From Naegleria gruberi (taxonomy: Eukaryota): a DNA stretch of 64,000 bases. The position numbers were made by a program, and so were the translations under genes. This document shows positions 1 to 49,093 of this stretch, piece after piece (positions within the stretch are counted from its first letter, which is position 1; each line of letters starts with the position of its first letter). The DNA is taken from the NCBI GenBank assembly GCA_000004985.1, contig GG738883.1. One strand, given 5' to 3'. Below the pieces are notes generated by a model that was given only the letters and a program-made list of their open reading frames with translations, ran no database searches and was not told the origin of the DNA.

Positions 1-3000
1 GCCAAGCTTTGTACCATTCCTTATCGAAATCTGTGGCAGCCTTGAAATGAGAAAGAATTTGTGGTAATTTGCTCTCTTCTAATCCACCATGTTGTCTGTA
101 AATAACCTTTTGCCATTGTCCCAATGTAAGGAATGCTCTAGCTTTAAGTTGGTTATCACATTGAATGTTGTATACAAATTGGTTCATTAATTCATAAGCT
201 CTCATTTGCTTTCCTTCAACCCACATGTGTTTGAAATATTCATATGAAATCTTTGGATGTACTTCTGGAGAAATGAGAAGCTTTTCTGGTTCTTCACTCA
301 ATGAAATTCCATCAACTAATTTTTGAAGAATCTTTTCACTCATTCTAATCTTGTTAGACTTTCTGCAAATAGAAGCAAACTTCAACCATGTCGAAAGATC
401 TTGTCTTTCAGGAATTACTAATTTTCTAACTGAGAGAATGTTTTGCCAATGTTCAACATTTCTCTTACAACCATGAAGTCTGTCAATCCATATTTGGTGA
501 GTAAGAGCTTTGGTTTCTTCATCTTCAGCCTTTTGATATCTAATAATTTCTTCCATTTCAGACAATTGTTGGACGGTAACAATAATATCATAGGCTCTAT
601 TGTAACTTTCACCAACAAGTGCTGCAAGTTCGGTATCCAAAACTTTACGAGTCTTATCAATCAAAACCTCTGCATTATGATGATCCTTTTGGTGAATAGC
701 CAAAATTGCTCTAAAGAAAGCACCTTCACTTGTATCTTCGCTGAGAATGTTAACATAATTTCTCATGCTTTCCCATTCTCCCAAGTTCCAAGCAGCATGA
801 GCTGCCATTGGTGCCATTTCTTCTTTGATAGTATCACTGAAAGTGTTCCATGATTCTTGGCAAAGCTTGAAAAGCTTTTCCCATTCGCCAATAGCCTTCA
901 AACATCTCATCTTACCTAGAGTTAGGCTTTGGTCATATGGATTTTGCTTTTGTTTGATACTGTAGGCGTCATAAGCTTCCTTCCATCTTTGAAGTTTTTC
1001 ATACCACGATTCTTTGAGTTCAATACTGTGATTCTTTTGAGCATATTTAAGAATACCCATAGCGGCTTCATGTTGTTGGAGTTGGTTATTGATACTAATC
1101 AAATCTTCAATGAGAGCACTTGGATTTTGTTGGAATTCAATTTCCTTATAGTGCAATGCCTTGGCAAAACATTGACATTTTTCAGCCAAAGCACCAAGAG
1201 CACTTATAGCAATAGGAAGTGGATTTTCATCATGTTCCATAAATTCTGCCAAGTTCAAAAGTGTTTGCAAAACTTCAGGAGGTAAATCAGGGGAAGAGAA
1301 TGCCATCTCCAAAGCACGCACAACTTCATTTTGTGCCTTATCATCAAGTTCAGACCAACAGCTGACAAAACCAGCATTAAATAATTCTCTAGTAAGTGGA
1401 TGATAGACTTGAGCTAATGCTGAACATGAACGTAATGCAGGAGAAGGAGATTCTTTCAAAAGTTCAACTGAAAAACCTCTATTCCATTCAATCCAATCGT
1501 CCTTGGTTGCTCTCTGGGATGCTTCCCATGCCTTTCTCAAACTATTTTGGTTGATAACCATTTTCTTGACCTCTGTCATTGAGTCTTCTCCATTAGAATT
1601 ACTAACTTCATCTTCATCATCAGGCATATTAGGAAGTGGAAGTCCCTTCAACAAGTGGAATATGAATTCATTATACTTTTGATGTGTGATATTATATTGA
1701 GTTAACACTTTAGTAACCATTGGAATGAAAATAGAAAAGTCGCTTCCCAATTGGTGAATAATATTGCAGAGAGTATCCATAGCTTCTTGTCTAATTTCAT
1801 TGTTTGGTATTTTGAGAACTCTAGAAAGTGGATGAATAATTCTTGAAGAATATTCTGAGAAGTTCAAGATTCTACTCAATTTACCAATACATCTAATAGC
1901 CTCTCTCTTAAGAGAAATATTAGCCAATGGAGCTTCGAACAATTTAACCACTGTTGGAATAACGAGATATAAATATTCTTCTAAATGTCTACCAAAAACA
2001 ATAAGTGCATGAAGTGCTTTCTTTGCTGGTTTAAATTGTTGAGGAGTTTGAAGAACGCTCAATATTTGAGGGATAACATCAGGAAGGTTTGGTTTGAATT
2101 GCTCATTAAGTGCTGTACAAATTTCCTCTTCTAGTGAAATAATTTGTTCCTTGAAATCAGTATCAGAAGAACTCATATCCCAGAACTCGTGGATAAGTAG
2201 GAAAATCTCGTCTAAATAGTTTCTGATATGCTGCTTAACAATAGAAACTAGCAAACTTAATTGTTGGAAAACAGTATTACGAATATTAGGTTCACAATTT
2301 CTAATCAAGTTCAAGAAAGGAGGCATAACTTGAGGTAAGAAAGGAACACATTTCATATTTAAACTGGTAAAGATAAACATGACTGCTTGGATGGCGTTAA
2401 GATGGTGAATGGCAAGAGAAGGATCAGTCAAAATTCTAATAAGAGCATTAAATGCAACTGTAGGATAGTATTCTTCAGAAGAAGGGCTTAAACCTGGAAT
2501 AATGTCGCTGCTGTCGTTAGTTTCCTTTGCTGATTCCAATTGGAGCTTGTGTTGATATGGATCAATAGCACCAATAATACCAAGAACTTTGATTATTTCT
2601 CTTCTTGTGGTCCATTCTTCTTCCGACTTTAAAATAGCTAATAAAAGTGTCAGTAAATTAGGATACTTGATATAGGGAGTGATTACATAACCAGTGCTGG
2701 CAACTATTTGTCCTAAAGTCTTTACAGCCATAGCTCTCTTTGCTGAAGAACTTTGATCTTGTAAAGTTTCAATTACAGAAGGCAAAAGATCATCAATAAA
2801 ATCAGCAATATCCATTCCACCAACTTCTGCAAGTTTACCTGTTGTATCCAATACACAAGAGGCTACATTTGGATTATTGTCCTTGATTCTTTCCATTAAA
2901 ACTTTCAATACGCTCGAAACATATGGTTTTATCAATCTAGGAGCTGCAACTATTAAATGACCAAGCATTCTAGCGCTTTCTTCCTTGCTTCTAGAGTCTT

Positions 3001-4948
3001 GACTATATTCAAGTTCAGTCAAAAGTTGGAGAAGAGCCTTTCTTAAAGATGGAAGAACAAATGCAGGATTTCTAATGCTCAATCTTCCAATAACAGAAAT
3101 AGCAACCTCTCTAATTTCGAAAAATTCATCATTAAGAGCAATAAATAAGGATCTCAAATTATCTGATAATGCCAAATAATGATCAAACTTTGGATCTAAA
3201 GAAGATAAAACAGCAAATCTAATTGTGTAGTCTGTATCTGTAATACCAACAATTAAAAGTTTTGCTAAAACATCACCAACAACAGAACCAAAATGACCTT
3301 TAACTGGTGGTTTTCCTTGACTGACAAGAAGTCTGCAACATGTTTTAGCAGCCTCTTTTCTAACAGAAGGTATATCATCATCCAAATATTTTACAACACA
3401 ATCATGTACAAAATCTATCAAGTTGTGTCCCTTGACATTGAAACTTCCCAAAGTTTTAAGAGCAAAAACTATTGTTGGTGTACTATAAAGTGTAGATTCA
3501 ATATGTGGAGCAAATTGGGTTGGAGGTGTGACTGGATTAAGGGTATTAAATGGTTGTCTAGCCAAAATTTGAGAAATTGTGTCCAAAACTCTCTTTTGAA
3601 TAGGTTGTAAGAGTGCAGGGATTTCTTTGGAGATAATTGTAAGGGATTGGATAAGTGTTGTGGTTAAGCCACCAGCAAACATGGAAGGAAGTAAATGTAA
3701 AATACGGAGAGAAACTGTATCACCAACAGCTTTTGAAATATCACTAATACATGTTAAAGATTCCTCGCAAAAGTTCTTCTTTTTGATTTTAAGACCCCAT
3801 TCTGTTATTATGTTGAAAATGTCATCCACATATTTCTTGATAGGTTGTCCAACACGTGTTGTTAATTCACCAAGAGCAAGAAATGATGAAGGTCTTTCGA
3901 ACCCGTTTTTGATAGCTTCTAATATCAAATTAATTGATCTATGTAAGTATTTCTCATTAAATCTTTCTCCGTAAAACTTTGCCAATACGGGTATAAGCTC
4001 AATGACAGTTCTTCTGACCATTTTATCTTTATGTGAGTGGAATCCAAGAACTGTATTACAGATGGCATCAAATTCATCTTTCAAGACATTTCCTGCAAAT
4101 CCTAATAATTCACCAATGGCAAGTAAAGCTCCGTGAACAACATCAGATTTAGCATTCTTAAAGTTGATATTTGTCTGATTATAAATATCTTGATACCAAA
4201 TATTACGGAAATTTGTTGGACGTTCTGATATTAAACCAAGAACAGCATGAAGTGCTTGCACTGAACCAATTCTAACACTTACGTTTGGATCAGTGAGTCC
4301 ATTCCAAATCACACTCAAAAAGCTTTGTACATGTCCATAAAATAGTGTAGGAGCATTTTCAGCAAGTTCTTTTAGAATAAACACTGCTGCATATCGTTTT
4401 CCGTCATCATTTTTCTTGTTGTTATTGTTATCACTTTCCAACCATTCCAAAGCTCTCTTAATTTCAAATTCAACCCATTCTGCTGTTAAAGTTTTAGATT
4501 CACTTGCTCTGGCTAATTTACCAAAAGTTTTGGCAACCATTAACACTATCTGAGACTCGTTAGATGGATTTGCTACTATATTCCTAAGACATTGATAAAA
4601 TCGAGTTTTGTTAATTTTCCTTTGATCATCGTATCTAACATCAATTAAAACGTCGATTAATACGATGGCAGCAATACGGTCATTTGTTTCTCTAGAGCTT
4701 GAAAACTCTACAATTTTACTATGGTAAATATCATCTATAAACTTGATAAAGTTGTCAGCTGAATATTCACGATATATTTTCTCAACCTATTATCATCAAG
4801 ATATTGTGTTTAATGTTTATAATATTATTTAGTTTGATGAACAACAATAAAAACATACCTGTGTTTTGAACAATTGAACCCCAATGTTCCTTTGTTCCTC
4901 GTTCTTGCTTGTTATATTTGAAAATATTTCTACCAATTCACTACTCAT
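1..4948 (-). CDS. tor: TOR (target of rapamycin) PIKK-family kinase, N-terminal ~1600 aa (HEAT repeats into the FAT region). Exon 1 is 4859..4948 (MSSELVEIFSNITSKNEEQRNIGVQLFKTQ). The intron is 4787..4858 (GTATGT...AATAG, 72 nt). Exon 2 runs from 4786 down to <1 and continues beyond the left edge.
   Basis: Own translation of the minus strand gives an uninterrupted ORF from 4786 to the window edge after splicing. Long HEAT-like repeats are followed by ...ILSHFKAATDFDKEWYKAW, matching the conserved TOR FAT-region motif (W-Y-K-A-W-H-x-W-A). The ATG at 4948..4946 lies in an A-rich context and the intron boundaries are canonical. The gene is missing from the ORF track because no stop lies inside the window. 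Confidence 0.85.
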
Positions 4949-5652: not shown

Positions 5653-5724
5653 GGGACCATGGTCTAGTGGTATGATTCTCGCTTTGGGTGCGAGAGGCCG
5701 TGGGTTCGATTCCCACTGGTCCCC
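5653..5724 (+). tRNA. tRNA-Pro, anticodon UGG
   Basis: Cloverleaf by eye. The acceptor GGGACCA pairs with TGGTCCC. The anticodon loop is tttgggt, with U33 and G37 flanking TGG. The T-arm is GTGGGTTCGATTCCCAC. A T5 run follows at 5734-5738, a pol III terminator. Confidence 0.9.
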
Positions 5725-5829: not shown

Positions 5830-5901
5830 TAGCAAATCTAGGTTTCGATCCTAGGACCTATGGGTTATGAGCCCATCGCGCTTCCGCTGCGCCAATTTGC
5901 T
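5830..5901 (-). tRNA. initiator tRNA-Met, anticodon CAU
   Basis: The reverse complement is AGCAAATTGGCGCAGCGGAAGCGCGATGGGCTCATAACCCATAGGTCCTAGGATCGAAACCTAGATTTGCTA. Eukaryotic initiator hallmarks are present: an A1:U72 pair, three G:C pairs in the anticodon stem, and a T-loop AUCGAAA with A54 and A60. A T-run follows. Confidence 0.9.
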
Positions 5902-7438: not shown

Positions 7439-7927
7439 TTATTCTACGCTAATAGGACCAATATTAAGTAATGTTAATTGTTTCATTTCACTTATGTATT
7501 TGGATCCTTCTGCACCAATTTGATTTCTACCAATATTAAGTAATGTTAATTGTTTCATTTCACTTATGAATTTGGCTCCTTCATCACCAATTTGATTTCT
7601 ACCAATATAAAGTGATGTTAATTGTTTCATTTCACTTATGAATTTGGCTCCTTCATCACCAATTTGATTGCCATCAATATTAAGTGATGTTAATTGTTTC
7701 ATTTCACTTATGAATTTAACTGTATCTGGAGAGTTAAGCAACTTATTAGAAAACTTAATGTTTACAATACTATTCATGAATTGACTTTTCATTAACAATT
7801 CAATTCTATTTTCTGTAAATTGTTTTTTAAATTGAATAACAAGTTTTGAACGTTCCTTGATCACATTAAACCATTGTTTTGAAATTAAAGAACAATTATT
7901 CAAAATAAACCACGAATCATCAATCAT
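7439..7927 (-). CDS. F-box-like / RNI-type leucine-rich-repeat protein (162 aa, possibly C-terminally truncated), containing four near-identical 24-aa LRR units
   Basis: The N-terminal motif NCSLISKQWFNVI is shared with the paralog at 39572..40873. The repeats read ISEMKQLTSLNIGRNQIGDEGAKF. Confidence 0.6.
   Translation of the reverse strand: MIDDSWFILNNCSLISKQWFNVIKERSKLVIQFKKQFTENRIELLMKSQFMNSIVNIKFSNKLLNSPDTVKFISEMKQLTSLNIDGNQIGDEGAKFISEMKQLTSLYIGRNQIGDEGAKFISEMKQLTLLNIGRNQIGAEGSKYISEMKQLTLLNIGPISVE
7457..7745. repeat. 72-bp tandem repeat, about 4 near-identical copies, encoding the LRR units of the 7439..7927 gene
   Basis: Direct reading: the unit accaatattaagtaatgttaattgtttcatttcacttatgaatttggctccttcatcaccaatttgatttct recurs with only a few substitutions. 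Confidence 0.85.
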
Positions 7928-8932: not shown

Positions 8933-9052
8933 GGCTACGGCCATATCACGATTCATGCACCTCATCCCGTCCGATTTGAGAAGTTAAGCATCGTCGAGCC
9001 ACATCAGTACTGAGGTTGGAGACAACTTGGGAACCTGTGGTGCTGTAGTCTT
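8933..9052 (+). rRNA. 5S ribosomal RNA (about 119 nt)
   Basis: GGCTACGGCCATATCACGATTCATGCACCTCATCCCGTCCGATTTGAGAAGTTAAGC...GGGAACCTGTGGTGCTGTAGTC matches the universal 5S consensus (box A, CCCGTCCGAT, AGTTAAGC, GGGA..GGTGCTGTAG). The termini pair to form helix I, and a TTTT terminator follows directly. Confidence 0.9.
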
Positions 9053-9259: not shown

Positions 9260-10324
9260 ATGCGACTATCAAATATCTTTCAAATTTTGCCTCACGATTT
9301 AATCAAAGAAATTCTCAGCCACATCAATTGTGTCGAACTAATATTCTCGCTCACACAAGTGTCTCGATATTGGAGAAGTGTTTGTCATGAATTTATGTGG
9401 CAACACTATCAAGAAACAAATTATTTAAGGCCTCCTCCTCCTCCGAAGAATCTAGATTCGTCATTTGAATTTCTCTACTCACCAGAAGGAAGAAAATTCA
9501 CCAAATATTTGCTCCGAAAACAAGTTTATGAATTTTCGAGTAAATTACAGAATAGTATTGAAAAAGGAAGTGATTCCTTCTCAAAAATGATTTTGTTGAA
9601 AGAGGAGTGGGTTGATGAAGAATTGAAAATTCTCAAGGGATACTTTAGACAATATTTTGATTTACAAGAATTGAAAACTGAAACGATTTCACGAGGATCG
9701 AATAGTTTTATTGGAAATACGTTTTCTTTTATTGGATCTTTCTTTTCAAGTAAATCAAAATCAACGAATAGCTTATCAAATTCAACAGTATCTCACAAAG
9801 ATGAAAACTATCTCACAAAGATACTTTTGGATGGTGAATCTGGAAGTGGAAAGACTTCACTACTCAATTGTGTCTTTTATAATTCACCTGTTGTTCCAAA
9901 TGCTTACGTTCCTTGCATGGGTGAAATGCCCATTAAAAATTATCAATTTGGAAACACAGCAAGAGTCAAAATTCAAATTTGGGATCTTCCAGGAAATACT
10001 CGTTTTAGAAGTATTTCTACATCCTATCATAGAGGAGCCACATTTTTTTTACTATTTGTTGATCCTTATTCAATTGATTACAATAGCTCACTAAAAGAAA
10101 AGCTGGAATATATGAAGAGTTATCTACCTGGAAAGGAAGTAATTTTCATTACAACAAAGAAAGATCGTACCAATGAGAAAAGATACTTTTCGAATGAACA
10201 AGCAGATCAGTTTGCTTTCGAAAATTTTGGTGGAATTCATTTAGATATTACCAATACTCAATTGGATGAACCAAAAACTATTGTATTATATTGTGCACTA
10301 CTCAAATATTTACTTTCTCCTTAA
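9260..10324 (+). CDS. F-box-like N-terminus fused to a divergent Ras/Rab-like small GTPase domain (354 aa)
   Basis: AAAAAAAAATG start. The F-box-like segment is LPHDLIKEILSHINCVELIFSLTQVSRYW. The P-loop is LLDGESGSGKTSL. The G3 motif is WDLPG, a variant of DTAG. The G4 motif is TTKKD, a variant of NKxD. Confidence 0.65.
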   Translation: MRLSNIFQILPHDLIKEILSHINCVELIFSLTQVSRYWRSVCHEFMWQHYQETNYLRPPPPPKNLDSSFEFLYSPEGRKFTKYLLRKQVYEFSSKLQNSIEKGSDSFSKMILLKEEWVDEELKILKGYFRQYFDLQELKTETISRGSNSFIGNTFSFIGSFFSSKSKSTNSLSNSTVSHKDENYLTKILLDGESGSGKTSLLNCVFYNSPVVPNAYVPCMGEMPIKNYQFGNTARVKIQIWDLPGNTRFRSISTSYHRGATFFLLFVDPYSIDYNSSLKEKLEYMKSYLPGKEVIFITTKKDRTNEKRYFSNEQADQFAFENFGGIHLDITNTQLDEPKTIVLYCALLKYLLSP

Positions 10325-33119: not shown

Positions 33120-36100
33120 ATGGCAGATTTTCAGAAGGCGTTTTATGCTGCGAGAGACGGCAAAATTGATGAATTTAATAATTATTTTAATGAACAAGAT
33201 GTTAATAATAAATCACAGTATGGTCAAACCATGTTGTGGGTTGCTTGCTTCAACGGACATTTAGAAATTGTTAAATTATTATTATCATGTAAAACAATTG
33301 ATGTTAATTTGGGAGTAAGTATTTAATATTTAATGTAATTTTATATTTATAATATTAGAATGTAAGTATTTAATATTATTTTTATTTATATTTATAATAT
33401 TAGAGAGTAAGTATTTTAATATTTAATTTTATTTATAATATTAGGATGTAAGTATTTAATATTTAATTTTATTTATATATTTAATATTAGTCACCATTAT
33501 ACACTGCTTGCCAAAATGGACATTTAGAAATTGTTAAATTATTATTATCATGTAAAACAATTGATGTTAATTTGACTGTAAGTTTAATATTTAATGTAAT
33601 TTTATATTTATAATATTAGGATGTAAGTATTTAATATTTAATATTATTTATATTTATAATAATAGTATGTAAGCATTTTAATATTTAATATTATTTATAT
33701 TTATAATATTAGAGAGTAAGTATTTAATATTTAATTTAATTTTATACTTTTAATTAGGATGTAAGTTAAATATTAAATATTATTTATATTTATAATATTA
33801 GTATGTAAGTATTTTAATATTAATTTTATTTATATATATAATATTAGTCACCATTATACATTGCTTGCCGATATGGATATTTAGAAATTATTAAACAATT
33901 ACTTCAACATCCAAATATTGAAATAGATAGCACATTGTCAGTGAATGGAATTAATATTCAAACAATTAAAAGTAACATGGAAAAAGAACAACAACAAATA
34001 TTAAAAGAACAATTAGAACAAGAAGAGTTTAAACAACTAGAAGTGGAAAGATTAGAAAGAGACAGAATTAAAAAATTAGAAATGGAAAGATTAGAAAGAG
34101 AAAGAATTGAAAAGGAACATTTACTAAAAATAGAAAGAGAAAGATTAGAACGAAAAGAATTGGAGAAAAAACAACCATTCATAATCACATCTGAAACATT
34201 TTCAAAATTATGTTCACTCAACCAACAAATTGATAATAATAGAAGAAAAATTGAAAAACAATTTGAATCAATTCAATCATTTTTTTCTTCTATTCAAATT
34301 AAGAAAGAATTTGAAGATGAATATTTAACAATTTGTGATAATTTAAATAATTGTTGTAATTTAATTGACAAATTAACAAGTAATAATTATAATATTGAAA
34401 ATAACGAACATTTGTTAAATATTAATAATTTGATGAATAATATTAGAACTATATTGGAATTTATTAATAATCAAAAATACTTATTTAAATTACAATCTTA
34501 TTCAGAAGTATTAAAAGACAAATTACAATTATTTAATGAATTTAATTCTCAATTTATTAAACAAGAATTATTTGACAATATTGAAATGAGTGAACAATCT
34601 ATTAAGAATATAAAAAGTATTAATATAGTTCCAACTCATAATAAATTTAGAAATGAAACTAAAACAACATTACAACAAGTTACAAAACAATTATCAAATA
34701 TTGTTAACTCAATCAATAATTGTAATGAAATTGATTTGTCACAATTTTCAAATAATTTACAAAAAGCAATGGAATTATCAGAACAAGAAGAATTATATTT
34801 AAATAATATATTGTCAAATTGTAAAGTATTAATTTCAGACAATGATCAAATGAATATTTTACAATTATTTAATTTTTATCAAACACAAGAATTAAATTGT
34901 AAATTATTAATTCAAGAAACAATTCCATATATAATTGAAAAATATGAAATGTTACAAAATATTATAAATATTATGGATGATTATTCAAATTTATCAGAAC
35001 AATTTAAAACTATTCAAAGACAAAAAACAAAAATTACAAGAAATTTACATATTGTAAATCTAGATATTGAAGGATTAAAAGATGAATTGAAACATGTCAA
35101 TAATGACGATGAAATTAAAGATGAAATTCAAACTAAAGAAAAGAATTTAATTGAATTAAAATCTAATTTGAAGGAAAATATTCAAAAGTTAAATGAAATT
35201 AAAATGAAATTTCTTCAATTAAAAACAATTGGATTTGATATTAAATCAAACATGACAAGTGATTTATTATCTAATTTAAATATTAATGAAATGACACCTG
35301 AAATGTTTAAAGAAATTAAACCAATTCAAAATTGGAATGGAAATCATAATGTTTTTATTGGAATTGATTTAAATGATAAAAAACATATAATTAAACAATA
35401 TAATTTAAAAGATAAGAAATCAATTGAAGGTTTAGAAAAGGAATTGAAAATAACAAACAAATTAAAGCACGCAAATATTATTGAAATTGAAGGAATTTAC
35501 ACTGAAGCTGATAACAAACACAGTACCACTAATGTATTTATTGTAATGCCATATTATTCAAATGGAAATTTGAAAGAATTTATTCAAACTAAAAGAAATC
35601 ATCAAAGTAATACTTTAAATTTATTATTTTGGGAAAGAACATGGAGACAATTATTAATTGGAATTCAACATGTACATTCCAGAGGTGTTATTCATTGTGA
35701 TATAAAACCAGAGAATATATTTGTTGGTGATAAAGATGAATCAACAGAATATTATCCAATTATTTTAGGTGATTTTGATATTAGTTTAGATATAACAAGT
35801 AGAACAATGAATTTATTCACAAGAACAAGTGGAATTGCTGGTACATTAGATTATTTATCACCTGAACTAGTGAATGGAAAAACATCAGCAACATTTAGAT
35901 CTGACATGTTTGCATTTGGTAAAACAATTCAAAATTGTATGACAGATCAAGAATTGAAACAATTCAAATCATTGAATAATTTATGTGAAGAGTGTTTGAA
36001 TTCAGATGTAAATTTGAGACCATTTGCATCTGATGCACTTGCAAATGAATTCTTTATGAAAGAAACATTATTAGATGAAGTTAAAATTCAGAAACATGTT

Positions 36101-37113
36101 CAATTAATCGAAAATCAATCAAAAGAATTGAAAGATTATCACAATCAATTGAATGAATTTGAATTGAAAATGAAAAAAAATCATGAAAATTTGAAAACTG
36201 AAATTTTAAATCTAGAAAAGGAAAAGAAACAATTTTCAAATTCAAAGCAAAGGAAAACGAAGAAATTTCAAAGAAATTACAAAATTTGAAACAAAAAGAA
36301 ATTGAAATTGAGAAAATGGAAAAGGAAATTAAAGAATCAAAATCCAAACAATTAACAATATCACTTCCAGGTTATTGGAAAAGAAACACATTCCCAAGCT
36401 ATTCGAAAAGATATTACACTGTTGATGTTACACAATATTTAAAAGATACAATGCAAGAAATTATGAATGCATCCTGTAATTCTGCAACACTTGGATCTGG
36501 AAGAGATCAAGTATCAAGAATTATGTATTCTAAATTGATTGTTTCCAGTGTTTCAAGAATTGAAAATTCAACACTTTTCACTTCATTCAAATCAAGAATG
36601 AATCAGTTAATTTCATATCAAGATTCAATTAATTCACTCCAAGTTCAGACTGAAAATATTTCAAAAACATCAAAAACATTTGAATGGATGAAAACAATTG
36701 GATTGAATTCTAATATGAATGAAAAATATTTATGGCATGGAACAAAACCTGAATTTGTGAATACAATTGCAGAACATGGATTCGATGAAAGAGTTGCAAA
36801 TTTAAATGGATTATTTGGAGCAGGTATTTATTTTGCAGAATATTGTTCAAAGAGTGATCAATATTGTACGCCTGATCATTCCAATGAATTTACTCTATTA
36901 TTATGTAGAGTTGTAATGGGAAGACAAATTCATTTCACAAAACAAGTGATGAATAATCAGAGAAGACCACCTGAAATTTCAGGAAGTAATAATAGAGTTT
37001 ATGATAGTGTTATTGGTCAATCAAATACTTCAACTAATTCATATAGAGAATTCATTGTCTATGATAAATGTCAATGTTATCCTGAATTTATAATTAAATA
37101 CAAGAGACAATAA
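33120..37113 (+). CDS. gene B: ankyrin repeats + long coiled coil + Ser/Thr protein kinase domain + coiled coil + PARP catalytic domain. Exons are 33120..33314, 33491..33577 and 33848..36289, with introns 33315..33490 and 33578..33847. There is a single-base frame break near 36254-36257, after which the ORF continues to 37113.
   Basis: AAAAAAATG start. Exon-1 ANK: MLWVACFNGHLEIVKLLLSCKTIDVNLG|GTAAGT. Exon 2: SPLYTACQNGHLEIVKLLLSCKTIDVNLT. Exon 3: SPLYIACRYGYLEIIKQLL..., in frame with ORF 33935..36289. Kinase motifs: HCDIKPENIF, GDFDIS, GTLDYLSPE. PARP motifs: LWHGTKPEFV, GAGIYFAEY, YREFIVYD (an H-Y-E triad). Restoring one A in the A-run at 36254-36257 joins the kinase ORF to the PARP ORF through a continuous coiled coil (...SNSKQKENEEISKKLQNLKQKEIEIEKMEKE...). 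Confidence 0.7.
33315..33490 (+). repeat. intron 1 of gene B: a tandem array of about 4 mini-intron-like units of ~45 bp each (GTAAGTATTTAATATT...TTTATAATATTAG)
   Basis: Direct reading shows repeated GTAAGT...ATATTAG units separated by 3-4 nt. Confidence 0.8.
33578..33847 (+). repeat. intron 2 of gene B: a tandem array of about 6 mini-intron-like units of ~45 bp each. The flanking exons 2 and 3 are diverged duplicates of the exon-1 ankyrin cassette.
   Basis: As above. In addition, 33262..33314 and 33521..33577 are nearly identical at the nucleotide level. Confidence 0.8.
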
Positions 37114-39571: not shown

Positions 39572-40873
39572 TTAAATGAAAATACTATCATGGAATATTT
39601 TGATTAAACGATTAGCAACCTCATCACAAATGTTATTTCCAGAAATATCAAAACTGGTCAATTGTTTCAAATCACTAAAATAAAGAGCTCCTTCATCACT
39701 AATACTATTGCAATTAATATCAAGATTGGTCAACCATTTCATATCGCCTATGTGTCTAGCTCCTTCATCTCCAAGATTATTTCTATGAATGGAGAGATGA
39801 GCTAGTTTATCCAATCCACTAACATATTGAGATCCTTGTTGACCAATATTATTAATAGAAATATCAAGAAAAGTTAATAATTTCAATTCTCTTATAAATT
39901 TAACTCCAATAGCACTAATACTATTAGAAGAGATACTAAGTTTGGTCAATTTTGTCAAACCACTTAGATAAGTGGCTCCTTCATCACCAATTCTACAACT
40001 ATTAATGTTAAGTTTGGTCAACTGTTTCATTTCACCTATATATTTTGCTCCTCCAGGACCAAAAGAAATACCAAATATATCAAGATCGGTCACTTGTGGC
40101 AGTTCATTTATAAATTTTACTCCTTCTTCATGAATTCCATTCTTAGCAATAGCTAAACTTGTTAAGTGTTTTAATTTACCAACATGAAATGCTCCTTTAT
40201 CACCAATATTAATGTTATTAACATTTAAACTGGTCAATTGTTTCATTTTAATGATATCTTCAAATGCAATATTTCCAATATCATTTCCGTTAATATTAAG
40301 ACTAGTCAACTTCCTCATATTGGTAATATATTTGAGACAATTCATACCAAATCTATTTTTACTTATAACAAGATTTGTTAATTGTTCCAATTTACTTATA
40401 TGCATAACTCCATAATTACCAATACTATTATCAGAAACATTAAGATAAGTCAACTGTTTCAATTTACTTATTGGTTCCACTATTGAATCAGTTATCAAAC
40501 TCTTAGATATGTCAAGACTAATCAATTGATCCAATGAAATTAAATATTTAGACATTTCTACAAAATTAATTTTTGAAATTCGAAGATCAGTTAATGATTT
40601 CATCATGATCAACTTGTTGTAAGTTTCAGAGTTTCCCCATCTAGTCATCGTCAGAGTTTTAATATTTTGTAAAAATTGACCAGCTATTCTGTCCATTCTT
40701 GCACCTTTACATTTCAAGTAAAGATGATGACATGTCGATAACACCACATTGAACCACTGTTTTGAAACCAATGAACAATTCATGACAATAAATTTAAAAT
40801 CATCATGAAAGGATAAAATTTCATAAATTACATCATCAGGAAATGTTTCTACTACTGGGAGTTGTTGAGACAT
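39572..40873 (-). CDS. F-box-like + RNI-type leucine-rich-repeat protein (about 433 aa from MSQQLPVVETFPDD...)
   Basis: The ATG at 40873 sits in an ATAAAAATG context. FPDDVIYEILSF...NCSLVSKQWFNVVL resembles the 7439..7927 N-terminus. There are at least 14 LRRs of the 24-28-aa ribonuclease-inhibitor type (LTSLNINGNDIGNIAFEDI...). Confidence 0.7.
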   Translation of the reverse strand: MSQQLPVVETFPDDVIYEILSFHDDFKFIVMNCSLVSKQWFNVVLSTCHHLYLKCKGARMDRIAGQFLQNIKTLTMTRWGNSETYNKLIMMKSLTDLRISKINFVEMSKYLISLDQLISLDISKSLITDSIVEPISKLKQLTYLNVSDNSIGNYGVMHISKLEQLTNLVISKNRFGMNCLKYITNMRKLTSLNINGNDIGNIAFEDIIKMKQLTSLNVNNINIGDKGAFHVGKLKHLTSLAIAKNGIHEEGVKFINELPQVTDLDIFGISFGPGGAKYIGEMKQLTKLNINSCRIGDEGATYLSGLTKLTKLSISSNSISAIGVKFIRELKLLTFLDISINNIGQQGSQYVSGLDKLAHLSIHRNNLGDEGARHIGDMKWLTNLDINCNSISDEGALYFSDLKQLTSFDISGNNICDEVANRLIKIFHDSIFI

Positions 40874-41252
40874 TTTTATTCCTTTGATGAAAAACACTTC
40901 CAATTATCTGATAGAAAAATCTCTTCCCATGATAACATGTTGATCTTTGATGTGAGAATAATCCACAATTTTCTCAGAGCATAAATTCAGTATTATATAA
41001 TTTAAGAAAAGAGATGATTAATGGCTATTCATCATCGGAATTGATTTTGAATAAACTTAAACTGTAAATTTTTACAAAACAAAAATTCAAAACAAGCCTT
41101 CATCACGCCTATTTGTTAGGAAACAAATTCTCTTGCTTTCTTTTGAAAAAATGTTTGTCCACCATTATCACAAGGAAAGGAATTCTAAAGTTTTATAAAT
41201 TCAAAGGCTTTGTGTTGCAAAACTAATACAAGACAAAAAAATTAAAAGTAAT

Positions 41253-46525: not shown

Positions 46526-49093
46526 TTACCAATAGTCACCACAAGTACATTTTCCATCCTTAAAATGGTGGAACCGTGAGGCATCACGAATTATTATTTC
46601 ACAATTTCTAACTGCTGACAACAATTTAGTGGCATTATGGCAATCTCCACAAACCCTCAAGTTCGTTGTTAAATGAATTGTTGATGTATTTGGCTGTTTG
46701 TTGAAAGCATATGCCATGGCTATCTTTTCAGAATGTTTGTATAGTAAATCCAGTTTTTCTGCATCAGTGTCAACATTTTTAATCACCCAGCTTAGGTCTG
46801 GTTGATAACCTGCCTTAATGAGATCAGCTACCATTTTTTTTAGTTCTTTCTCTATCATCTTTATCTCTGGATGCTCCTTTTCTTCACAAACAAAAGAATG
46901 CATTTTCCCTTCGATACAAACTTGCGTCATACTTGGTAACTTTTTAAATCCACCAAATTCCATCAACTCTTTAACCCTTTTGGCGTCTTCGTACATGTCT
47001 TGAGAAGCATAAATGTTAGCCATTAAAATGAAGTGAGATGATTCCACTTCATTTCGTTCAATAAGCATATTGAAAAGTTTCTCTGCTAAGGTGACATTGT
47101 TGAATTTTCTACAGACCCCAAATAAAGTGGACACAGTAACAACGTCAGGACTGATACAAGACCCTAGCAATTTCTCAGCCTCTTTAATATTACCTTTTCT
47201 TGCCAATGCATCGATCAAACATGCCAAATGTATGTTTGATGGTTTGATTGAATATTTGGACTCCATGTGGTTGTATATTTCTTTTGCTTCGTCCACCATA
47301 CCACAATGGCCACATGCATGCAACACACATGTTAGAGTATGCTCATTTGGTTTAATATTTTCTTTGCTCATTTGGTTCAAAAGTTCAATAGCCTTCAATC
47401 CCATTCCATGTATTGCATAAGCATTTATGATACAGGTCCACGAAACAACATCTTTGTTTGGTACTGAGAGGAAAACTTCATGTGCACTTGTTAAATCTCC
47501 ACATTTTGCATACATATTAATGAGTGCATTAAACAAGTTGTGGTCTCTGATTCTTAGCTCACTAATATTTCTGTGAATTATTTTTCCAAAATCCAAATTT
47601 CCAAATTCAGAGCATACAGAAAGAAGCAAAATAAGGGTTGGTACATCTGGAACCAAGTTGTTATTGATCATATCTTCGTACAGGGAGATAGCTTCTGGCA
47701 TTTTCTTAAGATTGGCCCATAACTTTATCATACATCCATAATGTGCTGTAATTCTTGCTATCTTGAATAAGGTGTTCATATTATCGAACAAGAAACATGC
47801 TTCTTGTTCCATAGAATGATTTGCAAAAAATGTTAACATAACCGTCATGGTTACATCATTCGGTTGGGTATACTTTGGCATGATCTTGAAATAAAGTAAT
47901 AATCTTTTTGTATCTCCATTTTGGGAGCATCCCTTAAGAAATGAGTTCCATGTTATTACATCTTTGAATTCCATTTGGTTGAATATTGATTCTGCATGTT
48001 CTACTTTACCACTCTTCAAAAACGAATCCAAAAGAACATTGAAAACAAAAACAGAGGTAACGCCTTCACTAATAATAATACTTTCTATTTCTTCCAACCT
48101 ACCCTCTTCACAATACGTTGGTATGATTAGTGTCCAAGTTGTATCGTCCAGTTGTTTCGTTTTAAGCATCTTCATAAACAGTTCTATTGCTGTTTGAGTT
48201 TCCCCACATTTCGAAAACATGTTAATGAGATTATTCTGAACAGTAATACTCCTGTATAGTTCATAATTTTTCATAATTGTTTCGTGCAATTTTTTCCCAT
48301 TAACTAGAGATCGAGTAATAGCACATCCTTTCAACAAAAGAATAAATGTTACTTCGTTTGGAATGAGTTCTTTCTCTTGTCTGTAAATATTCATAGCTTC
48401 CTCACTTTCTCCATTCTCAATCAATGCCTTTATCAGACAATTAAAGTGAATAATATCTGGAGAAACGCCATATTCTTTCATTGAAAAATAAATTTCTTTG
48501 GCCTTTTCGCTCATGTTTGAATTGGCAAGAGAATTCAATAGTGAAGAAAATGTTTTGGGTTCTATTGGAATCTGTTTGCTTTTGACATATTTTAACAATT
48601 CAAATATGGTGGAAATATGTCCTGTATTGCAAAATCCTCTAATAATATAATTCCATGTTGGTGGATTTACTTTCTTCTTATATTCTTCTTGTAATGAAAG
48701 CATAATTGTTGAGAGATCATCCCATAATGAGGTACTTCTGTCACTGCTTTCGATTTTGCAATAACTTATTAATGAAATAATAACAAAATAATTTAAAAGT
48801 GATTTCTCCTTCAATAAATAATAGGCTTTAAAAGAATCATCCAACGACAACAATCTTTTTGATATGAGTAAGTTGGCATCAAAGGAATTTGGTTTCTGGA
48901 AAAAATGTTTCGTTGCTGAATCAACTTTTCCTTCGGCTATTAAATTTCGAACCACTCGATAATCAAAAACAGGAGAGTACGTATGGAAACTATGAAATTT
49001 ATTTGTATCACTAAACTTCAGAGTTTCCATATAAGATTTCTTGCACTTAAGGTTCTTGAAAAGAAAATTTTCAGCACAAACCAGCACACGCAT
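46526..49093 (-). CDS. pentatricopeptide-repeat protein with a C-terminal DYW cytidine-deaminase domain (855 aa); a putative organellar C-to-U RNA-editing factor
   Basis: AAAAAAATG start. There are more than 15 PPR-like 35-aa repeats. The C-terminus reads HSEKIAMAYAF...LRVCGDCHNATKLLSAVRNCEIIIRDASRFHHFKDGKCTCGDYW*, carrying the HxE and CxDCH zinc motifs and the terminal DYW. Confidence 0.85.
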   Translation of the reverse strand: MRVLVCAENFLFKNLKCKKSYMETLKFSDTNKFHSFHTYSPVFDYRVVRNLIAEGKVDSATKHFFQKPNSFDANLLISKRLLSLDDSFKAYYLLKEKSLLNYFVIISLISYCKIESSDRSTSLWDDLSTIMLSLQEEYKKKVNPPTWNYIIRGFCNTGHISTIFELLKYVKSKQIPIEPKTFSSLLNSLANSNMSEKAKEIYFSMKEYGVSPDIIHFNCLIKALIENGESEEAMNIYRQEKELIPNEVTFILLLKGCAITRSLVNGKKLHETIMKNYELYRSITVQNNLINMFSKCGETQTAIELFMKMLKTKQLDDTTWTLIIPTYCEEGRLEEIESIIISEGVTSVFVFNVLLDSFLKSGKVEHAESIFNQMEFKDVITWNSFLKGCSQNGDTKRLLLYFKIMPKYTQPNDVTMTVMLTFFANHSMEQEACFLFDNMNTLFKIARITAHYGCMIKLWANLKKMPEAISLYEDMINNNLVPDVPTLILLLSVCSEFGNLDFGKIIHRNISELRIRDHNLFNALINMYAKCGDLTSAHEVFLSVPNKDVVSWTCIINAYAIHGMGLKAIELLNQMSKENIKPNEHTLTCVLHACGHCGMVDEAKEIYNHMESKYSIKPSNIHLACLIDALARKGNIKEAEKLLGSCISPDVVTVSTLFGVCRKFNNVTLAEKLFNMLIERNEVESSHFILMANIYASQDMYEDAKRVKELMEFGGFKKLPSMTQVCIEGKMHSFVCEEKEHPEIKMIEKELKKMVADLIKAGYQPDLSWVIKNVDTDAEKLDLLYKHSEKIAMAYAFNKQPNTSTIHLTTNLRVCGDCHNATKLLSAVRNCEIIIRDASRFHHFKDGKCTCGDYW

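Follow-up and report, generated by a model that had tools for sequence, protein, structure and literature searches.

The F-box–GTPase gene and its reading frame

The question considered here is whether an open reading frame (ORF) of Naegleria gruberi encodes a genuine fusion of an F-box with a small GTPase and, if so, what remains of the nucleotide switch in its unusual G domain. The ORF lies at positions 9260-10324 of a stretch of 64,000 nucleotides of contig GG738883.1 (assembly GCA_000004985.1), below called the window. A first-pass annotation, made from the sequence alone, described such a fusion with non-canonical G3 and G4 motifs and assigned it to a local family of four genes. At the sequence level the fusion of an F-box to a Rab-type G domain is confirmed as bona fide. 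The gene is as follows.

9260..10324, + strand: F-box–Rab-like GTPase gene, complete, single exon, 354 amino acids (aa); TAA at 10322-10324

The frame is open throughout its 354 codons, and an in-frame stop is situated five codons upstream of the ATG. From the N- to the C-terminus the protein consists of an F-box, a conserved helical linker, a disordered Ser/Asn-rich spacer and a Rab-like G domain. It contains no hydrophobic segment (maximum KD19 of 1.2 on the Kyte-Doolittle scale). The AlphaFold2 (AF2) model obtained with a two-sequence alignment (A1) had a predicted local distance difference test score (pLDDT) of 36 and was unusable. The model used throughout was made with the 17-sequence family alignment (A2) and has pLDDT 76 and a predicted template modelling score (pTM) of 0.77.

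Residues 110-354 are 100% identical to the N. gruberi protein XP_002674580.1 (P0001; 'rab family small GTPase'). This RefSeq model is 245 aa long, starts at Met110 (codon at 9587) and omits the F-box. If it were right, the product would be a stand-alone Rab-like GTPase of aa 110-354, and the F-box frame upstream would be untranslated. We regard this as most improbable. The 109 codons preceding Met110 are in frame, stop-free and colinear with full-length paralogues and with orthologues from three Naegleria species, and both A2 and the AF2 model place Met110 within a conserved predicted helix of the linker. The N-terminus was also restored in the expert reannotation of Herman et al. 2021. Because the upstream codons are colinear with the paralogues and Met110 falls inside the conserved helix, the comparison points to the 354-aa protein as the correct product and to an error at the N-terminus of the RefSeq model. 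The locus thus confirms that the public model is truncated, and RefSeq still carries the truncated version.

The F-box, the linker and the spacer

The N-terminal half of the protein contains three elements.

9281..9418, + strand: F-box (aa 8-53), recognized by the Pfam models F-box and F-box-like; LP motif L10-P11; sequence VSRYWRSV
9452..9649, + strand: family-specific helical linker (aa 65-130) with motifs GRKFTKYLLRKQVYEF and EEWVDEELKILKGYF, from A2 and the AF2 model
9665..9796, + strand: Ser/Asn-rich spacer of variable length (aa 136-179), predicted to be disordered; pLDDT below 50, gappy and variable in A2

Both Pfam hidden Markov models (HMMs) score above their curated cut-offs: F-box (PF00646) with 26.0 bits against 20.5 (E 7.9e-6, aa 9-43), and F-box-like (PF12937) with 25.2 bits against 24.3. 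Together they span aa 8-49. The core positions of the box are present (L10-P11, I15, I18-L19, L27, V34, W38), and an LP or xP at the F-box motif is conserved across A2. Three helices are predicted, at aa 12-19, 24-33 and 36-53. The box is the best-conserved region with respect to the closest paralogue P0002 (67% identity, 57% overall). The linker has no Pfam match; its predicted helices (aa 65-72, 75-103 and 116-130) have pLDDT of about 80-90.

The F-box and the linker are conserved in at least 15 full-length relatives, hence the N-terminal similarity is not an effect of low complexity. The profile scan for F-box and Ras domains and the low-complexity check proposed by the first-pass annotation thus both favour its central claim: since HMM support is present and the similarity is not due to low complexity, the fusion is real. 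Neither a FYVE domain (Pfam, E up to 1) nor a Pfam match to a SOCS box was found in the 354-aa protein, and there is no sequence C-terminal to the G domain that could hold the latter.

The G domain

The domain and its motifs are the following.

9803..10315, + strand: Rab-like G domain (aa 182-352), from Pfam Ras/Roc, PDB sequence search, Foldseek and hhalign
9833..9856, + strand: G1 (P-loop) GESGSGKT (aa 192-199), canonical GxxxxGK[ST], aligned to GNSSVGKT of Rab3C
9905..9931, + strand: G2 (switch I) YVPCMG-EMP (aa 216-224), from the alignment
9980..10006, + strand: G3 (switch II) WDLPGNTRF (aa 241-249), from sequence and alignment
10151..10165, + strand: G4 TTKKD (aa 298-302), TKxD instead of NKxD; Lys and Asp retained
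10238..10321, + strand: signature HLDITNTQ where Rabs have their G5 motif ETSAK, then a conserved C-terminal helix ending in LYCALLKYLLSP, from sequence and alignment

In Pfam the nominal top model is Roc with 48.3 bits, followed by Ras with 46.4 bits (aa 187-321). The best matches among PDB sequences (phmmer) are Rab3, Rab8 and Rab1, with E 4e-15. The best matches among PDB structures (Foldseek) are Rab7, Rab3, Rab18, Ypt1 and Rab8, with target-normalised template modelling scores of 0.76-0.82, and the family aligns to the canonical Rab profile with score 318, E 6e-46 (hhalign). By sequence, profile and predicted fold the domain is of the Rab type. Membership in the Roco family, suggested by the Pfam ranking, was considered and ruled out: there is no COR domain, and both profile and fold are Rab-like.

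The P-loop, DLPG and TKKD motifs are as the first-pass annotation had read them. Compared with Rabs motif by motif, as it had also proposed, G1 is canonical, and the 354-aa protein lacks the rest of the canonical set, namely the switch-I Thr, the catalytic Gln, NKxD and SAK. In switch I, Cys219 occupies the position of the conserved Thr and one residue is deleted relative to TIGVDF of the family and of Rabs. In G3, the Asp and Gly of DxxG are retained, and the position of the catalytic Gln is taken by Asn246 (Pro in the family consensus, Gln in Rabs). Compared by eye with the definitions of Pereira-Leal and Seabra, three RabF motifs are largely preserved (F2 KIQIW, F3 RFRSIS, F4 YHRGA) and two are degenerate: F1 reads MG-EM for IGVDF, and F5 reads LFVDPY for LVYDIT. 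In the AF2 model the protein ends two residues after the G domain. No prenylation motif (CC, CxC or CaaX) was found at the C-terminus ...LYCALLKYLLSP.

The Asp of [N/T]KxD in G4 determines guanine specificity, and TKxD is naturally used by dynamin and the SRP GTPases. Through its conserved Thr, switch I is normally connected to the gamma-phosphate and Mg2+. Since this copy keeps Lys and Thr in its P-loop, Asp and Gly in DxxG, and Lys and Asp in TKxD, it is expected to bind guanine nucleotides with normal specificity. Altered nucleotide specificity, which the first-pass annotation had raised, was rejected as unlikely: G4 still has its Lys and Asp, and TKxD occurs throughout the family. Its other suggestion, a pseudo-GTPase, survives in part. 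A failure to bind nucleotide is not indicated, with G1, DxxG and TKxD intact, and impaired switching and hydrolysis are plausible, with Cys in place of Thr and no Gln. Because both the catalytic Gln and the switch-I Thr are absent, we predict that the domain hydrolyses GTP very little by itself and that its conformational switch is weakened. It is thus probably an atypical GTPase, either locked with GTP or exchanging nucleotide fast, rather than a pseudo-GTPase that binds none.

The family and the divergence of this copy

An exhaustive HMMER profile search of 1.84 billion representatives yielded about a dozen full-length relatives. Those with a species name come from N. gruberi, N. fowleri and N. 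lovaniensis only, and the others from metagenome contigs; the remaining top matches are ordinary or tandem Rabs. A word-indexed homologue search gave three matches: the query gene, a single paralogue and a weak third match. Full-length members were observed on two metagenome contigs, L001 (ENA ERZ27315067, 3001-4116) and L002 (JGI 3300002220, 2130-3212). Their proteins carry canonical TIGVDF, WDQCG and TKxD, and they may stem from further species of Naegleria or from different heteroloboseans.

The consensus of A2 starts with an F-box with LP and a linker with GRxFxKxLLR and W..EL..LK.YF..F.DL, followed by the variable Ser/Asn-rich spacer. The G motifs are GxxxSGKTS (G1), TIGVDF (G2), WDQCGPERF (G3) and TKxD (G4). 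The C-terminal part has (D/E)ITNT where Rabs have ETSAK, and then WY(C/S)xLLKYLL without a prenylation Cys. As judged from this alignment, TKxD, the missing catalytic Gln and the replacement of SAK by (D/E)ITNT are traits of the whole family. Specific to this copy are only the Cys219 change in switch I with its one-residue deletion (PCMG-EM) and DLPGN in place of DQCGPE. Of the two motifs that the first-pass annotation considered peculiar, DLPGN is indeed so; TKKD, like the lack of the catalytic Gln, is not.

Of the 57 columns conserved in the family, this copy departs from the consensus at 10, compared with 1-7 for its closest relatives and 24-33 for the clearly degenerate members. Its identity to the outgroup paralogues P0163 and P0004 is 45-47%, compared with 53-59% for P0002. 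In the neighbour-joining tree it belongs to a clade formed by N. gruberi only (92% bootstrap) and has the longest branch there. By these sequence measures it is the fastest-evolving and most diverged member of its clade, derived and not degraded.

Five of the 17 aligned members (P0021, P0031, P0035, P0046, P0047) lack G3 (DxxG) and/or the P-loop Lys. In all five, the F-box and the linker motifs are retained, as is the signature ITNT...LLKYLL at the C-terminus. True pseudo-GTPases thus seem to have arisen repeatedly in the family.

Relation to the earlier description

All Ras-superfamily genes of N. gruberi were reannotated by Herman et al. 2021 (BMC Biol 19:142, PMC8296547). The corrected sequence of XP_002674580.1 in their Table S8 (Additional file 10) is an exact match to the 354-aa protein. 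The row lists it as 'Rab' with the additional domain 'F-box', without a pseudogene flag and without an orthologue outside Heterolobosea. Supplementary Material 4 (Additional file 4) describes a family with a conserved N-terminal extension and no relatives beyond Naegleria, whose subgroups are differentially expanded in N. gruberi. There the disrupted coding sequences of some members are taken as a sign of birth-and-death evolution, a CaaX motif is reported in one subgroup, and F-boxes are said to be fused also to Rho, Ran and G-alpha domains. The authors propose 'GTPase-dependent ubiquitination' (PMC8296547). The gene and its Naegleria-specific family are thus already known at the descriptive level since 2021. 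Our full-length matches, all from Naegleria or metagenomes, agree with the absence of close relatives outside Naegleria/Heterolobosea.

What is added here is the motif-level description (TKxD throughout the family, Pro at the position of the catalytic Gln, ITNT for SAK), the loss of the switch-I Thr specific to this copy, its placement in the subgroup to which, judging by its C-terminus, it belongs, namely the one without a prenylation motif, and the recurrent loss of G motifs in other members despite retention of the F-box. The last point is not mentioned in the portions of Herman et al. 2021 cited above (PMC8296547). The practical value of the locus is modest. It confirms the truncation of the RefSeq model, and its motifs lead to the prediction that nucleotide is bound whereas hydrolysis and switching are defective; the hypothesis of a GTPase-gated SCF receptor, considered below, is of residual interest.

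Possible function

On balance we lean towards a functional F-box–Rab-like gene from a family under birth-and-death evolution, whose F-box docks Skp1 so that the protein serves as a receptor of the Skp1–cullin–F-box (SCF) ubiquitin ligase, also called cullin-RING ligase 1 (CRL1), with the G domain as its recognition module. The protein may be a substrate receptor or an adaptor. The G domain would select the partner, and in canonical family members the nucleotide state would gate this recognition. In this copy guanine nucleotide is probably still bound, hydrolysis and switching would be poor, and the protein would act as a constitutively 'on' or fast-exchanging receptor. We assume that Skp1 is present in N. 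gruberi, given the universal conservation of SCF; nothing directly usable was found in the literature on Naegleria Skp1 or cullin. We know of no genetic tools for Naegleria.

A broader proposal is tentative, and we would not call it probable. The family would provide lineage-specific SCF receptors in which a Rab switch gates the capture of substrates, and paralogues such as this copy, with neither the switch-I Thr nor a catalytic residue, as well as the members deprived of G3 or of the P-loop Lys, would be receptors 'locked' in one state or independent of nucleotide, diversifying quickly at the interface of organism and environment; the origin of these receptors would be independent of that of the euglenozoan FRP proteins. 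Here only the locked or pseudo-switch refinement would be new, as GTPase-dependent ubiquitination is already proposed by Herman et al.

Several observations speak against the SCF-receptor explanation. The annotated RefSeq product has no F-box at all. In P0002, the nearest paralogue, the F-box-like model reaches 20.0, short of the Pfam cut-off of 24.3. The change of the switch-I Thr to Cys with a deletion, together with the faster divergence, also fits relaxed constraint. The loss of G motifs in five of the 17 members with the F-box kept shows that the family as a whole cannot depend on nucleotide gating. Finally, Herman et al. state that a specific function cannot be predicted (PMC8296547).

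The same data can be explained in other ways. The F-box may mainly shorten the lifetime of the GTPase, a signalling or trafficking Rab-like protein whose level would be set by SCF self-ubiquitination without third-party substrates. Auto-ubiquitination is common among F-box proteins, and the F-box of TbFRP was linked by its authors to rapid turnover and proteolysis (PMC3593210). The conserved helical linker and the pTM of 0.77 suggest instead an integrated, receptor-like architecture, and as the main role of the F-box this seems rather unlikely to us, although self-destabilization and a receptor function are compatible with each other. Binding of Skp1 outside a cullin ligase, in membrane traffic, is distinctly unlikely. 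It would follow the example of yeast Rcy1, which forms with Skp1 a non-SCF complex acting with Ypt31/32, and the Rab-like domain would provide contacts with organelles or effectors; the G domain is indeed closest to exocytic and recycling Rabs (Rab3, Rab8, Rab1, Rab11). However, an evident membrane anchor is missing, since the protein has neither a prenylation Cys nor any hydrophobic stretch (maximum KD19 1.2), and the RabF1 effector/switch motif is degenerate.

It is also unlikely that this copy is a decaying or neofunctionalized pseudo-GTPase, intact by chance or only recently relaxed, with no nucleotide-dependent function. Such a state would agree with the longest branch in the clade and the lower identity to the outgroup paralogues, with the loss of the switch-I Thr and the departure of G3 from QCGPE of the family, with the clear loss of G motifs in other members, and with the disrupted genes and birth-and-death evolution reported by Herman et al. 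(PMC8296547). On the other hand, the 354-codon frame is open, the F-box, the linker motifs, the P-loop, DxxG, TKxD and the C-terminal signature are all kept, deviations are limited to 10 of 57 conserved columns, and the gene's entry in Herman et al. carries no putative-pseudogene flag (PMC8296547). We retain the SCF receptor as the preferred interpretation.

Other F-box-like genes in the window

Three more genes were assigned to the same F-box-like group by the first-pass annotation.

39572..40903, - strand: F-box-like gene with ribonuclease-inhibitor (RNI)-type leucine-rich repeats (LRRs), full-length paralogue of the gene at 7439; start probably at the Met of MSQQLPVV; LRR_6 98 bits
7439..7975, - strand: short F-box-like/LRR paralogue with box FSDDVCFEIICMIDDSWFILNNCSLISKQWFNV; first ATG at 7927; the box reaches upstream to about 7975 and is then preceded by a stop
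10380..11705, + strand: orphan ORF, weakly F-box-like at its N-terminus, with hydrophobic segments in two places; RefSeq P0164 ('predicted protein', 334 aa) starts at Met108, without the putative box

None of them passes a Pfam cut-off for the F-box. The box of the gene at 39572 has sub-threshold Pfam E-values of 0.004 (F-box-like) and 0.01, whereas with the F-box HMM of the family it gives a significant match (E 2e-4). The gene at 7439 has no F-box HMM match, even in its upstream-extended version. The two are paralogues: they share NCSL[IV]SKQWFNV and RNI-type LRRs, match LRR_6, and find each other in BLASTP with E 2e-30. Only 178 aa of the gene at 7439 can be aligned with the 433 aa of that at 39572, and its LRR array ends abruptly. 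To judge from the sequence, either it misses a first exon beyond an unannotated intron, or it is a truncated copy.

The ORF at 10380 has E-values of about 0.05 with both Pfam F-box models (0.054 for F-box) and 0.3 with the family HMM, and the homologue search returned only the match to itself. The transmembrane-like segments that had been noted in it are real (aa 285-311 and 338-363 on the Kyte-Doolittle scale); the F-box to which they were said to be fused is a weak call. Two adjoining RefSeq models, that of the F-box–GTPase gene and P0164, both begin at an internal Met and drop conserved or plausible N-termini (9260-9586 and 10380-10700). XP_002674580.1 was corrected by Herman et al. 2021; no correction was found for P0164.

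A search of the six-frame translation of the window with the family F-box HMM gave no further F-box genes beyond 39572. The claim of a local family of four genes is thus partly right: the gene at 9260 has a bona fide F-box, those at 7439 and 39572 are paralogues of the F-box-like/LRR type, and the ORF at 10380, whose F-box call stays below threshold, is doubtful. Modular reuse of the F-box, also suggested in the first-pass annotation, is reasonable and fits the genome-wide picture of Herman et al. (PMC8296547).

Other features of the window

The window is nuclear DNA of N. gruberi, as follows from its gene content and from the 100% identity to XP_002674580.1; its G+C content is about 32%, and tRNA genes are dispersed along it. 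Its other genes are of typical eukaryotic kinds and encode a MACPF protein, an actin-like protein, Hsp90, transcription factor DP, a cyclic-nucleotide-gated channel, an ankyrin-PARP protein, a protein kinase and a pentatricopeptide repeat (PPR) protein with a DYW deaminase. The following features may be listed.

5653-5724, + strand, and 5830-5901, - strand: tRNA-Pro(UGG) and tRNA-Met(CAU), convergent (tail-to-tail), 105 bp apart
8933-9051, + strand: stand-alone 5S rRNA gene, full length (Rfam 100 bits), 209 bp upstream of the start codon of the F-box–GTPase gene
17366-17436, + strand: tRNA-Asp(GUC), separate
46526-49093, - strand: PPR protein of 855 aa that has an E motif and, at its C-terminus, a DYW deaminase domain, the architecture of plant-type organellar RNA-editing factors

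The 5S rRNA gene is not linked to other rRNA genes within the window. PPR–DYW proteins are known to occur in Naegleria. Two ORFs at 11757-12011 and 12053-12997 on the - strand resemble the two halves of one RluA-type pseudouridine synthase, with HRLDRDTSG in the upstream part; the gap of about 41 bp between them is probably a short intron. The G+C content falls to 21% at 34001-36000, within the ORF 33935-36289 that encodes a protein kinase domain (aa 480-674). The N-terminal half of this ORF is probably an AT-rich coding region of low complexity.

Comparison with known systems

The likeness to Roco proteins consists in the nominal first rank of Roc in Pfam. The 354-aa protein has no COR or other Roco feature, and its profile and fold are Rab-like. 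Naegleria is also reported to lack the Roco family (Herman et al. 2021, PMC8296547).

An analogue in architecture, likewise from Discoba, is TbFRP/FRP, a FYVE–F-box–Ras-like GTPase restricted to Euglenozoa, of which the authors found no N. gruberi orthologue (PMC3593210). In both Discoba lineages an F-box precedes a divergent Rab-related G domain without the catalytic Gln, and a link to ubiquitin or turnover has been proposed for FRP and for the Naegleria family alike. In contrast, FYVE is present in FRP and absent from the 354-aa protein, and NKxD is lost in FRP whereas TKxD is kept in the Naegleria family. A specific kinship was considered and rejected, as the alignment is confined to the G domains and each of the families resembles ordinary Rabs more than the other. 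The FRP sequences used were reconstructed from the machine-read supplementary alignment of PMC3593210 and may contain errors; with them hhalign gives score 95, E 2e-12 for the Naegleria family against FRP and score 149, E 6e-22 for FRP against the canonical Rab profile. No FRP-like proteins occur among the long top matches of the family search. These comparisons thus give no evidence of a shared origin of the Naegleria and euglenozoan fusions.

RhoBTB, a Cullin3 adaptor (PMC4931677) that is present in Naegleria (Herman et al. 2021, PMC8296547), is similar in having an atypical, probably hydrolysis-deficient G domain of the Ras superfamily and a cullin-adaptor module in one polypeptide. It differs in the Rho type of the G domain, in docking by BTB to Cul3, and in the reversed order of domains.

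The best functional precedent for a Rab as a receptor of a cullin-RING ligase is Rab40, where a Rab-type G domain is joined to a small docking box for the cullin ligase. Rab40 proteins are prenylated and have canonical G motifs. The 354-aa protein has neither a prenylation Cys nor the canonical set of G motifs, and its box is an N-terminal F-box (for Skp1–Cul1) instead of a C-terminal SOCS box (for ElonginB/C–Cul5). With Cullin5, Rab40b and Rab40c show that a Rab can be the substrate receptor of a cullin ligase (PMC8129794, PMC9070665, PMC10509765). The Naegleria protein may be the CRL1 counterpart of Rab40-SOCS/CRL5 and RhoBTB/CRL3. If so, SCF ligases in Naegleria would be coupled directly, and on a broad scale, to switches of the small-GTPase type, an uncommon mode of regulation for which these two systems are among the few precedents.

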